From: a virus
Taxonomy: Duplodnaviria; Heunggongvirae; Uroviricota; Caudoviricetes
IMG/VR virus record: IMGVR_UViG_2695420643_000022
Length of the DNA: 9,262 bases
Reading direction: 5' to 3' (one strand)
Shown here: positions 5,781 through 7,478 of the stretch, piece after piece
Position numbering within the stretch: the stretch's first letter is position 1
Layout: each line of letters starts with the position of its first letter
Notes under the pieces: model-generated
Database searches by the model: none
What the model saw: only the letters and a program-made list of their open reading frames with translations
Told to the model about the DNA's origin: nothing
Translations under genes and position numbers: made by a program

Positions 5781-6068
5781 TCAGATAGAGAAGGGAAATT
5801 GTCGCCGAGAATGTGTCACGCTTACAATCTCAATGCTTGAAGCAGCTACTCTGTACAGGATTATGTAGTTAGGGTGGGTCACGATCTCTCTCAATCCAGA
5901 AACCCGTTCGCTTGGTGGATATAAGTACGGATGCTCAGATAGAGGTAATACCGATGTTTCAATGCGTATTTTTAGTCTACGTGCTGCCGGTGGGTTCTCC
6001 TTGGCGATGTAAGTTATGATCTGGCGCAAATCATCGCGAGCAGACGGTAGCCATAAAATGGGTAACAT
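5781..6068 (-). CDS. parE2: ParE/RelE-family type II toxin, 95 aa
   Basis: MLPILWLPSARDDLRQIITYIAKENPPAARRL...EIVTHPNYIILYRV...: typical ParE/RelE size and motifs. Its ATG overlaps the antitoxin stop (TAATG). Symbol by analogy to the E. coli O157 paaR2-paaA2-parE2 system, from memory. Confidence 0.7.
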   Translation of the reverse strand: MLPILWLPSARDDLRQIITYIAKENPPAARRLKIRIETSVLPLSEHPYLYPPSERVSGLREIVTHPNYIILYRVAASSIEIVSVTHSRRQFPFSI

Positions 6069-6259
6069 TACTCGCTCTTGTTAGTTACAGCAATTTGAGC
6101 AATAAGATTTTCCATTTCAGCCATTACCTCGTCATGTGGAATTGCGGGGCGAGTGTCTGCAAGGCTTGACGTTACTTTAGTGCGCAACCATTCGTTGTAA
6201 CTGTTTTCTTGTTCGGTAGTTTCGAATTCTGAAACTATCGGAGAAAGGGCTGTACCCAT
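6068..6259 (-). CDS. paaA2: Small antitoxin, 63 aa, PaaA2-like
   Basis: MGTALSPIVSEFETTEQENSYNEWLRTKVTSSLADTRPAIPHDEV...: matches my recollection of PaaA2 (EFET.EQENSYNEWLR motif, 63 aa). Strong SD GAGGAG; immediately upstream of and coupled to the toxin. Confidence 0.65.
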   Translation of the reverse strand: MGTALSPIVSEFETTEQENSYNEWLRTKVTSSLADTRPAIPHDEVMAEMENLIAQIAVTNKSE

Positions 6260-6286
6260 GGCATAACTCCTCTTCTTGTACTGTGG

Positions 6287-6688
6287 TCACGCCCGGCGGC
6301 TTTTTTGTGCCGCCAGCCACCTAGCAATGGTTTCTTCCATTGATTTTTTCTTGTCTTTGATTTCTTGAAGCATTTTTTCTTGGTCTTCCTCAGGAAACGC
6401 ACTAAAAGCTTGGAGCAGTTCGCGTTGGCGAGGACCAATTTTCATCGTGTCAGGGGTGAAAATTTGCTCACACTCTTCAGGAGGCAATAAAAACCAATGC
6501 AATGGATGCCCTGAAACCTCAACCAGTTTATCCAAACTTGAGGCTTTAGGTGTAGCCTTACCGCTGACCCATTGTTGAACAGTTTGTTGTGTCACACCAA
6601 TTCTACGGGCAAGCTCAGCCTGGCTCCATCCAGTTTCCTGAAGAAGCTTGCTGATTCTGTACATAGATACTTCTAGGGCGCTCATCAT
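6287..6688 (-). CDS. paaR2: HTH (XRE/DicA-like) transcriptional regulator, 133 aa; likely the CI-like repressor of this prophage and regulator of the toxin-antitoxin operon
   Basis: HTH segment SQAELARRIGVTQQTVQQWVSGK; C-terminal region resembles DicA; first gene of the three-gene operon. A -10-like TAAAAT lies 6 nt upstream of the ATG, suggesting a leaderless transcript as for lambda cI from pRM. Confidence 0.6.
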   Translation of the reverse strand: MMSALEVSMYRISKLLQETGWSQAELARRIGVTQQTVQQWVSGKATPKASSLDKLVEVSGHPLHWFLLPPEECEQIFTPDTMKIGPRQRELLQAFSAFPEEDQEKMLQEIKDKKKSMEETIARWLAAQKSRRA

Positions 6689-6796
6689 TATTCAATTTTA
6701 CAGGTAAATACTGTTAAAAGCATCACAATAAAAAACTGTTGATTGCATACAGTTTTTTATTGTAGGCTTTGCTTATAGTTTTTAGAGGAGGGCAAA
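6689..6796. promoter_or_regulatory. Divergent promoter/operator region between the regulator gene and the Cro-like gene
   Basis: 108-bp AT-rich intergenic region; TATAGT (6774-6779) upstream of SD AGAGGAGGG and ATG 6797 on the plus strand; TAAAAT just before the regulator ATG on the minus strand; contains the O-right palindrome. Confidence 0.55.
6725..6763. promoter_or_regulatory. 39-bp palindromic operator (O-right): ACAATAAAAAACTGT - 9 bp - ACAGTTTTTTATTGT
   Basis: Perfect 15-bp inverted repeat arms, same length and near-identical sequence to O-left at 5691-5729. Confidence 0.6.
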
Positions 6797-7069
6797 ATGC
6801 TAGATAGCACTCGCGAAAAAATTAGGCAGAAATACACTCAGGCTGAAATAGGTCGTTATATGGGGGTCGCTCAACAGACTGTTTGGCAATGGTTTAGCTT
6901 TGGCGTTCCCCCAAAGCAGGTAATTCCGTTATGCCAACTAATGAAGTGGGAAGTTACCCCGCATGAAATCCGCCCAGATATTTATCCTAACCCAACCGAC
7001 GGTTTACCTGTTGGATGTAAGGTTAACACATCAAATGCGCCGGAGTTGATTCATGAAAATCAAGCATGA
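6797..7069 (+). CDS. ydaS: Cro-like HTH protein, YdaS-like, 90 aa
   Basis: Strong SD AGAGGAGGG; HTH QAEIGRYMGVAQQTVWQWF and the TPHEIRPDIYP motif recalled from YdaS-family proteins; divergent from the repressor gene. Confidence 0.65.
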   Translation: MLDSTREKIRQKYTQAEIGRYMGVAQQTVWQWFSFGVPPKQVIPLCQLMKWEVTPHEIRPDIYPNPTDGLPVGCKVNTSNAPELIHENQA

Positions 7070-7478
7070 ACACATCCGCATGGCGATGAATGCCTGGGCG
7101 CATCCGGACGGCGAAAAAGTACCGGCTGCGAAAATTACCAAAGCGTATTTCGAGCTGGGAATGACGTTCCCGGAACTGTATGACGACAGCCATCCGGAAG
7201 CCATGGCTCGCAATACTCAGAAAATTTTCCGCTGGGTGGAGAAAGACACTCCTGATGCGGTTAAAAAAATTCAGGCGTTGTTACCAGCGATCGAAAAAGC
7301 GATGCCGCCTCCGCTGGTGGCCCGAATGCGCAGCCACAGTTCCGCTTATTTTCGGGAGTTGGTAGAGACGAAGGAACGGCTGGTGAAAGATATTGATGAT
7401 TTCGTTGCATCAGCGATCGTTCTGTTCGATCAGATGAATCGTGGTGGCCCGGCAGGAAACACTCTGGCTGTGCATTAA
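7053..7478 (+). CDS. ydaT: YdaT-like (CII-like) protein, 141 aa
   Basis: N-terminus MKIKHEHI matches my recollection of Rac YdaT; overlaps the ydaS-like gene by 17 nt; SD GGAG 7 nt upstream. Confidence 0.6.
   Translation: MKIKHEHIRMAMNAWAHPDGEKVPAAKITKAYFELGMTFPELYDDSHPEAMARNTQKIFRWVEKDTPDAVKKIQALLPAIEKAMPPPLVARMRSHSSAYFRELVETKERLVKDIDDFVASAIVLFDQMNRGGPAGNTLAVH

Follow-up and report, generated by a model that had tools for sequence, protein, structure and literature searches.

A paaR-paaA-parE-type operon opposite a ydaS-like/ydaT pair in the probable immunity region of an Sp4/CP-933M prophage of E. coli

Is the divergent gene cluster at positions 5781-7478 of a 9,262-nucleotide stretch of viral DNA (here called the window) the paaR2-paaA2-parE2 locus of E. 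coli O157 cryptic prophages, and is its toxin tied to the lysogeny switch? An earlier note, made from the sequence alone, had proposed both, reading the cluster as a three-component toxin-antitoxin operon in a prophage immunity region opposite a Cro-like/YdaT-like pair. That reading of the layout was upheld when sequences, structure databases, and the literature were compared, and all five open reading frames were confirmed at the same positions. The equation with paaR2-paaA2-parE2 held for the family but failed for the locus itself; we concluded, with a probability of about 0.88, that the cluster is an immunity region, the lysis/lysogeny switch of Sp4/CP-933M, a lambdoid prophage of Shiga-toxin-producing E. 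coli, and that it carries a paralogue of the paaR2-paaA2-parE2 operon.

Gene content and identity of the locus

The ORF list and family matches placed a repressor-antitoxin-toxin operon on the minus strand facing a ydaS-like/ydaT pair on the plus strand, together spanning 5781-7478. The parts are as follows.

5781-6068, minus strand: parE-type toxin gene, 95 aa, equal to ECs_1067, probable ParE1 (Pfam, PDB, Sakai identity)
6068-6259, minus strand: paaA-type antitoxin gene, 63 aa, equal to ECs_1068 (Pfam, PDB, NCBIfam)
6260-6286, minus strand: regulator-antitoxin spacer, 27 nt, with a GAGGAG ribosome-binding site (read from sequence)
6287-6688, minus strand: CI-like immunity repressor gene, 133 aa, equal to ECs_1069 'phage repressor protein' (HTH_3, PaaR2/DicA similarity)
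6797-7069, plus strand: ydaS-like Cro-analogue gene, 90 aa, equal to ECs_1070 (Pfam, PHROG)
7053-7478, plus strand: ydaT gene, CII analogue, 141 aa, equal to ECs_1071 (PDB, PHROG)

The toxin had been called ParE/RelE-like and the antitoxin PaaA2-like, with BLAST or HMM searches suggested as the check; profile and structure searches supported both assignments. The 95-aa toxin matched Pfam ParE_toxin (PF05016; E=2.9e-17, 63.5 bits, cut-off 23) and, at full length (residues 1-93), the ParE2 structure 5cw7_B (E=3e-36), and it was 65% identical to ParE2. The 63-aa antitoxin, 62% identical to PaaA2, matched Pfam PaaA2 (PF21217; E=5.6e-19, 68.3 bits, cut-off 27), the PaaA2 structure 3zbe (E=1.4e-20), and NCBIfam NF050103 (E=1.6e-26); PF21217 was its sole Pfam match, and it is without a DNA-binding domain. 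According to Hallez 2010, as cited in PMC8630535 and PMC4803016, expression of ParE2 inhibits growth or induces SOS, and the same is implied for ParE1; the review PMC4803016, also citing Hallez 2010, reports that PaaA1 does not neutralise ParE2, nor PaaA2 ParE1.

The paaA stop codon overlaps the parE start codon (TAATG, base 6068 being common to both). The proposed translational coupling of all three genes needs correction, as this is the only overlap; the regulator and antitoxin genes lie 27 nt apart, and the antitoxin gene has its own Shine-Dalgarno sequence. The regulator gene opens the operon and shares the strand of the toxin-antitoxin pair, and the minus-strand terminator scan found no terminator-like site in the 6260-6286 spacer and none before 5762-5747. 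Each of the three genes is a cistron of its own within a single operon, and to describe the repressor as physically fused to a toxin-antitoxin module was to go too far.

The 133-aa repressor combines an N-terminal XRE/434-type HTH with a C-terminal PaaR2/DicA-like domain. Residues 13-58 matched Pfam HTH_3 (E=2.3e-12), and among solved structures the HTH matched the 434 repressor best (E=3e-5). Identity to PaaR2 was 42% over residues 37-133, the C-terminal ~98 aa (E=1e-20), and 34% overall, the first ~36 residues, which hold most of the HTH_3 match, being unaligned with PaaR2. Identity to DicA was 28% over 111 aa (E=6e-12), and NCBIfam DicA was the top match of the repressor, but below its cut-off. 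The Pfam search detected no Peptidase_S24 domain, the C-terminus matching the PaaR2/DicA type only, and no solved structure for the C-terminal domain was found by sequence search.

On the other strand, the divergent orientation of the ydaS-like gene relative to the repressor gene was confirmed. Its product matched Pfam YdaS_toxin (E=8e-10, 38.8 bits, cut-off 30) and PHROG 35 'transcriptional repressor' (E=9e-29); it had no detectable similarity to the YdaS of CP-933P, and the sequence search found no solved structure for it. YdaT matched Pfam YdaT_toxin (E=1.2e-9), PHROG 163 'CII-like transcriptional activator' (E=4e-46), and the PDB entries 8bt1, which is CP-933P YdaT (E=1.4e-82), and 3c4r (E=3.9e-83), and was 89% identical to the YdaT of the PaaR2-type locus. 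Relative to 8bt1, residues 35-49 are identical and residues 50-63 differ only at 51, 62, and 63; the recognition helix is thus conserved, including Arg53 and Arg60.

Which prophage carries these genes was decided by genome comparison. Positions 5706-7831 were 100% identical to ECs_1067-ECs_1071 of E. coli O157:H7 Sakai, which the Sakai record annotates 'prophage Sp4', and the identity was likewise 100% in over 400 complete genomes of E. coli from several serotypes. The window from 92 to 9262 was 100% identical to O45:H2/O103:H2-type genomes, and its prophage position next to yccA is shared with Sakai Sp4, from which it differs by two changes in OL and an IS end in int. This IS629/IS1203 end cuts the integrase gene at base 91, and the IS/int junction (window 1-91) had no single-piece match among complete genomes. 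O157:H7 genomes hold exactly two loci of the PaaR-PaaA-ParE type; Sp4 is CP-933M (PMC2884950), and CP-933M carries a homologue of paaR2-paaA2-parE2 (PMC8630535). Because of the 100% identity to Sp4 genes, we take the locus to be this paralogue and not the paaR2 locus itself. The latter was rejected, as the PaaR2-type locus (L006), whose regulator begins MQKKE and whose intergenic region is 97 bp as in PMC8630535, is only 65%, 62%, and 34% identical in toxin, antitoxin, and regulator. Most probably the operon is paaR1-paaA1-parE1 of Hallez et al. 2010, a name that we assigned from two secondary sources and the genome position. Beyond the locus, a 169-aa ORF at 7492-8001 on the plus strand was taken as spurious, since it had no family match and overlapped an annotated ECs1072-family gene in antisense.

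Operators, promoters, and terminator

The control elements lie between the divergent genes, at the ydaS/ydaT junction, and at the far end of the operon.

6689-6796, no strand assigned: divergent control region, the OR analogue, 108 bp, containing three 15-bp operators
6700-6714, 6725-6739, and 6749-6763: OR operators, 15-bp ACAR-N7-YTGT, predicted from repetition and position
5691-5705 and 5715-5729: OL operators, 15-bp ACAR-N7-YTGT, predicted in the same way
6695-6700, minus strand: TAAAAT, a -10-like hexamer for the PRM analogue, separated by 6 nt from the regulator ATG (6688), read from sequence
6739-6768, plus strand: putative PR analogue, TTGATT, 18-nt spacer, TAGGCT, which would drive ydaS-ydaT, read from sequence
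5686-5729, minus strand: PL/OL analogue, TTGACA-18-TAGATT with two flanking operators (promoter scan, 10/12 matches)
5747-5762, minus strand: intrinsic terminator of the regulator-antitoxin-toxin operon, TCCCTCTTTCGAGGGA then TTTTTTT (terminator scan)
7046-7063, plus strand: YdaT operator OM, TTGATTCATGAAAATCAA (TTGATT-N6-AATCAA), at the ydaS/ydaT junction (exact motif match)

The intergenic region, which the earlier note had described as 108 bp and operator-containing, measures exactly 108 bp and contains ACAR-N7-YTGT three times. Five copies occur in the window against 0.62 expected, a number reached in none of 200 shuffles. Operators 6725-6739 and 6749-6763, with 9 nt between them, are exact inverted copies of each other, and the 39-nt module at 5691-5729 is repeated at 6725-6763 with 79% identity. 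The OR and OL operators, 1034 bp apart, bracket the whole operon, with OL just past the operon terminator; the latter consists of a stem at 5762-5747 plus a T-run and starts 19 nt past the parE stop. The PL analogue points leftward into the ydfA-like, ydfB, DicF, and dicB genes, and the PaaR2-type locus has other sequence in place of the stretch around it, without homology to 5673-5791.

The promoters of the 108-bp region were less distinct. A simple promoter scan of this region reported neither the PR nor the PRM analogue, PR being below threshold, and both were placed by eye from their likeness to the PL-like promoter and to mapped CP-933P promoters. As placed, the -35 of PR would abut operator 6725-6739, and the spacer and -10 of PR would be covered by operator 6749-6763. 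On the other side, the spacing from TAAAAT to the ATG equals that of GATAAT, 6 nt, and ATG in the PaaR2-type locus, and paaR2 transcription starts at the A of the ATG (PMC8630535); because the spacing is the same as that of leaderless paaR2, the regulator mRNA is probably leaderless as well. The regulator is predicted to repress the promoter of its own operon, operator 6700-6714 falling in the PRM-like spacer.

The TTGATT-N6-AATCAA motif, which DNase I footprints had defined for the YdaT of CP-933P (PMC9986795), occurs once in the window against 0.05 expected, and the box is in register in four of the five immunity types, including the PaaR2-type locus.

A proposed switch and competing readings

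By homology to CP-933P, we propose that the Sp4 locus works as follows. The 133-aa HTH protein would be a CI-like repressor, made together with antitoxin and toxin from a weak, probably leaderless PRM-like promoter. It would bind ACAR-N7-YTGT at the three OR sites and at the two OL sites 1034 bp away, shutting off two promoters, that of ydaS-ydaT to the right and that of ydfA/DicF/dicB to the left. The YdaS-like Cro analogue, which presumably binds operators common to the repressor, would compete for them and so give two mutually exclusive, heritable states, while YdaT, the CII analogue, acting at its TTGATT-N6-AATCAA site, would increase the leftward transcription that enters the repressor operon. 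PaaA would neutralise ParE by direct binding; since the antitoxin would be labile, loss of the locus would free the toxin, making the immunity region addictive and stabilising the prophage. The idea that toxin expression is tied to the lysogeny switch holds for transcription but not for toxin activation, as in the CP-933P paralogue the transcription state did not lead to toxin activation (PMC8630535).

Comparison of immunity types suggested a possible extension of this scheme. OL, OR, the DNA-binding part of the repressor, and ydaS are swapped together (a cassette covering ~6353-7041 and 5673-5791), whereas the toxin-antitoxin genes, the C-terminal part of the repressor, and ydaT are homologous across types; this joint exchange also speaks for the immunity-region reading. 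As the cassette is swapped but YdaT, with its nearly identical recognition helix, and its box are conserved between co-resident prophages, the YdaT of one prophage could turn on the repressor-toxin-antitoxin operon of the other. Likewise, as the OR and OL operators bracket the operon, a repressor-mediated DNA loop would enclose the toxin genes. We offer this combination, a Sp4 switch independent of the CP-933P repressor yet wired to the sister prophage through YdaT, with an OR-OL loop around the toxin genes, as a tentative suggestion that may well prove wrong; the literature examined described neither YdaT cross-talk nor an operon-enclosing loop for the Sp4/CP-933M paralogue.

The toxin-antitoxin pair might instead be mainly phage-defence or exclusion cargo in the rexA-rexB slot, driven by the lysogenic promoter and aborting infection by other phages, and not an addiction module. 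It sits right after the gene of the CI analogue, within one operon, just as rexA-rexB follow cI in lambda (PMC8630535), and relative to Qin, where dicA is followed by ydfA-ydfB-ydfC-dicF-dicB, the pair looks like cargo inserted between the repressor gene and PL; toxins of the RelE/ParE superfamily are also discussed as defence toxins in PMC11980606. However, no PADLOC defence model matched toxin or antitoxin (the regulator gave only generic HTH matches), the literature examined reported no defence phenotype, and the paralogue stabilised a plasmid by post-segregational killing (PMC8630535), all of which makes a mainly defensive role unlikely.

We also considered that the switch might be a decayed remnant of a defective prophage, its genes intact but its bistability lost and only toxin-antitoxin addiction under selection. 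The interrupted integrase gene of the window and the IS629 and ISEc8 insertions of Sakai Sp4 point that way, as does the description of CP-933M as cryptic, only one lambda-like prophage of the strain making particles (PMC8630535). Against this, none of the five ORFs and five operators is disrupted, nor is the YdaT box, the terminator, or either promoter, and all are 100% conserved in more than 400 genomes, and CP-933P, which is equally cryptic, still shows a working bistable switch (PMC8630535); we therefore consider loss of the switch improbable, and we retain the immunity region with its addictive toxin-antitoxin pair as the preferred reading. That ydaS-ydaT is itself a toxin-antitoxin pair, giving two such systems back to back, is suggested by the names 'YdaS_toxin' (Pfam) and 'toxin YdaT family protein' (RefSeq), but it is hardly credible, since YdaT binds DNA as a POU-type tetramer and has a defined operator (PMC9986795) that is present in the window, PHROGs places both proteins among transcription regulators, and the idea is effectively refuted for the 89%-identical paralogue.

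As a discovery the locus carries little weight, because the system, its sister locus, and its regulatory logic are already in the literature and a prophage of a reference genome has the identical sequence. Its value lies in correct annotation: 'toxin YdaT' and 'YdaS toxin' mislead as labels, and it is the ParE gene of the repressor operon that encodes the actual toxin. The locus also lends itself to comparison, having the same toxin-antitoxin cargo and CII analogue with a different repressor/Cro/operator cassette, and the contrast between Sp4 and CP-933P could be used to study the specificity of immunity and the cross-talk of prophages that share an O157 host.

Comparison with known systems

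Within the toxin-antitoxin operon nothing distinguishes the window from paaR1-paaA1-parE1 of CP-933M (Sakai Sp4, ECs_1069-ECs_1067). CP-933P (= Sp12; Jurenas et al. 2021, PMC8630535) has the same gene order and orientation, control regions (OR and OL/PL) on either side of the operon, and in the same register a YdaT box identical to that of the window. Its PaaR2 has the C-terminal domain in common with the repressor of the window but differs from its DNA-binding part (HTH_3, 434-like) at the N-terminus, the Cro analogues are unrelated, and the C-terminal tails of the antitoxins differ. The intergenic region is 108 bp in the window and 97 bp in CP-933P, and the operators are 15-bp ACAR-N7-YTGT sites (3 + 2) in the former and 18-bp GTTTAGTAA-type repeats in the latter, where they form four inverted repeats, so that details of cooperativity may not carry over to Sp4. 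Because the repressors are alike only C-terminally and the Cro-like proteins are unrelated, each prophage probably responds to a repressor of its own.

The window resembles lambda cI-rexA-rexB/cro-cII and phage 434 in having divergent PRM and PR analogues with three operators ~24-25 bp apart, a distant OL with PL, a probably leaderless repressor mRNA, and cargo genes that follow the repressor gene and are co-transcribed with it. The operators of 434 are ACAA-N6-TTGT, close to ACAR-N7-YTGT, the spacer in the window being one base longer. Unlike lambda CI, the repressor is without a RecA-cleavable S24 peptidase domain; the cargo is a ParE toxin-antitoxin pair in place of RexAB, and the CII analogue, YdaT, is a POU-type tetramer, unlike that of lambda. 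Qin of E. coli K-12 is without ydaT and without a toxin-antitoxin pair between dicA and ydfA, and its DicC is unrelated to the YdaS-like protein, but its DicA has the same two-domain layout as the repressor of the window, and the downstream order of a ydfA-like gene, ydfB, DicF, and dicB is common to both.

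A paralogue of paaR2-paaA2-parE2

The ORF list and the sequence agreed exactly on five genes, as the earlier note had described them:

6287-6688, minus strand, HTH protein (regulator), 133 aa
6068-6259, minus strand, antitoxin, 63 aa
5781-6068, minus strand, ParE toxin, 95 aa
6797-7069, plus strand, YdaS-like protein, 90 aa
7053-7478, plus strand, YdaT, 141 aa

The 108-bp region claimed to separate the divergent groups was exact (6689-6796), and the claimed terminator corresponded to a terminator-like hairpin with a T-run at 5762-5747 on the minus strand, 19 nt past the toxin stop; the terminator scan found no minus-strand terminator within the operon. 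Translational coupling, proposed for all three operon genes, held for antitoxin and toxin, whose stop and start codons have one base in common (TAATG, 6066-6070); since the regulator and antitoxin genes lie 27 nt apart, with a GAGGAG ribosome-binding site in the gap, it is limited to the last two genes.

The suggested HMM check, counting Pfam matches above the gathering threshold, identified the toxin as ParE_toxin (E=2.9e-17) and the antitoxin as PaaA2 (E=5.6e-19); the regulator matched HTH_3 (E=2.3e-12), the YdaS-like protein YdaS_toxin (E=8e-10) and YdaT YdaT_toxin (E=1.2e-9). An NCBIfam equivalog model named the antitoxin (E=1.6e-26), and the regulator's best NCBIfam match was DicA, under the cut-off. 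Among solved structures, the toxin resembled E. coli O157 ParE2 (5cw7, E=3e-36), the antitoxin PaaA2 (3zbe, E=1.4e-20) and YdaT the CP-933P YdaT (8bt1, E=1.4e-82; 3c4r also matched); the phage 434 repressor HTH was closest to the regulator (E=3e-5), and the YdaS-like protein had no relative there.

Hundreds of complete E. coli genomes contained the 2-kb core at 100% identity; at least 80% of this query was covered in 485 of 5426 genomes, and the TA operon alone gave 438 records at 99% identity or above. In O157:H7 493/89, SS17 and Sakai, the locus is carried by a lambdoid prophage adjoining yccA, labelled 'prophage Sp4, lambda-like phage' in the Sakai record (genes ECs_1067 to ECs_1071). Positions 92-9262 matched O45:H2-type genomes at 100% identity and Sakai at 99.3%, with zero differences from Sakai within 5706-7831. 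CP-933M corresponds to Sp4 in Sakai (PMC2884950); a passage of Jurenas et al. (2021; PMC8630535), citing Hallez et al. (2010), places a paaR2-paaA2-parE2 homologue on CP-933M, and a review passage (PMC4803016) describes two paralogous O157:H7 systems whose antitoxins do not cross-neutralise. As the query also matched two places in O157:H7 genomes, we concluded that the window carries the CP-933M/Sp4 paralogue of paaR2-paaA2-parE2, most probably the published paaR1-paaA1-parE1. The three-component system is already known; the match to paaR2-paaA2-parE2 made in the earlier note was right as to the type of system but not as to the locus, which is this paralogue with another repressor, Cro and operator specificity.

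Predicted operators and promoters, and the YdaT box

The pattern ACAR-N7-YTGT occurred five times in the window, all at two control regions (0.62 expected by shuffling; 0 of 200 shuffles reached five), and promoters were assigned around these sites:

6700-6714, predicted operator in the 108-bp region
6725-6739, predicted operator in the 108-bp region
6749-6763, predicted operator in the 108-bp region
5691-5705, predicted left operator
5715-5729, predicted left operator
5715-5686, minus strand, strong PL analogue between the two left operators, TTGACA-18-TAGATT (promoter scan)
6739-6744 and 6763-6768, putative PR analogue, TTGATT-18 nt-TAGGCT, placed from the PL-analogue layout
6700-6695, putative PRM analogue, TAAAAT, 6 nt before the regulator ATG

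A 39-nt module is repeated at 6725-6763 and 5691-5729, 1034 bp apart. The equivalent left region of the PaaR2-type locus bears its own repeat type, so the operator motif changes along with the repressor. Compared with Sakai Sp4, the left operator region has a 1-nt deletion and one substitution, T in place of Sakai's A (5696/5705); Sakai's A makes the left site identical to operator 6725-6739, and the deletion sets the two left operators 9 nt apart here, against 10 nt in Sakai.

The PRM analogue has the same spacing as paaR2 (GATAAT, 6 nt, ATG), the transcript of which was shown to be leaderless (PMC8630535). Its −35 region is poor, as an activation-dependent promoter would show. By lambda logic, operator 6725-6739, centred about 44 bp upstream of the PRM-analogue start, is in a position compatible with activation, and operator 6700-6714, in the promoter spacer, in one compatible with self-repression.

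The YdaT site TTGATT-N6-AATCAA, defined by footprinting (PMC9986795), was present once in the window (7046-7063), and four of the five immunity types keep it in register. Loop 35-49 of YdaT has the same sequence as in CP-933P YdaT, and recognition helix 50-63 differs only conservatively, with Arg53 and Arg60 retained. Possible YdaT-mediated cross-talk and the operator description are small additions to a known system and need experimental support.

Prophage surroundings and proposed mechanism

The left arm contains:

5349-5504, ydfA-like gene
5219-5347, ydfB
4058-4109, minus strand, full-length DicF RNA (Rfam RF00039, 77 bits, E=4e-16)
3684-3872, minus strand, dicB, downstream of DicF

The PL analogue is predicted to drive the DicF and dicB operon. 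This arm mirrors that of the Qin prophage of K-12, where ydfA directly follows dicA, and the regulator has 28% identity to DicA of Qin and a two-domain layout in common with it; the TA pair therefore resembles cargo that was inserted after a DicA-like repressor gene and before PL.

Positions 1-91, which match the end of a Sakai IS629/IS1203 copy at 100% identity, interrupt the integrase gene (643 to 92, minus strand). As 184 of 339 codons are left, self-excision by its own integrase is probably impossible for this prophage copy. The exact junction was not found as one piece in any complete genome of the collection. Within an 823-aa exonuclease gene (931-3402, minus strand) that is otherwise nearly identical to Sakai, positions 1234-1435 differ from it by a cluster of some 25 substitutions and small indels, which looks like a short recombination patch. 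An ECs1072-family phage-associated gene (7685-8176, minus strand; NCBIfam NF033230, E=2.7e-30), without a match in Pfam, PHROG or PADLOC, sits in reverse orientation between ydaT and the replication gene; whereas, in all four other loci of this architecture, it is absent and the replication gene directly follows ydaT. The O-like replication gene (start 8220) contains arrays of an 11-bp unit (AAGGGGCTT...) at 8403-8429 and 8659-8694, probably origin iterons, followed by a GAACAG repeat (8699-8744); by comparison with Sakai, 24 bp (8832-8855) are inserted within a 36-nt repeat.

By homology with the CP-933P experiments, the repressor would silence PR and PL and govern its own operon, which would also yield PaaA and ParE. 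The YdaS-like protein, a transcriptional repressor by PHROGs class, would contest the same operators to set the alternative state, and YdaT, classed as a CII-like activator, would increase the leftward output of a PRE-like promoter. PaaA binding would neutralise ParE; loss of the locus would set the stable toxin free, making the immunity region addictive. The earlier note had tied toxin expression to the lysogeny switch. This may hold insofar as the repressor operon would also make PaaA and ParE, but neither transcriptional state of the CP-933P paralogue led to SOS induction (PMC8630535), so toxin activity is not simply tied to the switch. The regulator has no S24 self-cleavage domain in Pfam, and classical RecA-driven induction is therefore not expected.

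The switch could possibly be decayed and non-functional, against which all elements are intact and invariant in many genomes. A defence or exclusion function of the TA pair, suggested by analogy with the rexAB slot that it occupies, is possible but unsupported: PADLOC matched none of it, and the paralogue was shown to stabilise a plasmid (PMC8630535). The old idea that ydaS-ydaT is itself a TA pair was refuted experimentally for an 89%-identical YdaT (PMC8630535).

Comparison with other immunity types

We compared the locus with four further immunity types of the same architecture (L003-L006). L006 was taken as the PaaR2 type because its regulator start (MQKKE), 97-bp intergenic region and GTTTAGTAA-like repeats fit the published description (PMC8630535). 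Identity to L006 was 65% for ParE, 62% for PaaA and 89% for YdaT; whereas the regulator reached 34% overall and 42% over its C-terminal 98 residues (E=1e-20), and the YdaS-like proteins had no detectable similarity. DNA homology ended at 6352, inside the regulator gene, and restarted precisely where the YdaT box lies, at 7042; 5673-5791, just past the terminator, was likewise replaced. Thus, OR and OL, with the Cro analogue and the DNA-binding part of the repressor, behave as a single immunity cassette that can be exchanged, and the TA genes, the repressor C-terminal domain and ydaT are the conserved frame. In L005 (E. coli strain C3, 3760-3900), the YdaT box has the left arm GTGATT, not TTGATT, and the longer regulator (166 aa) has yet another N-terminal domain, which shows that the cassettes combined with this TA/ydaT frame are more diverse still.
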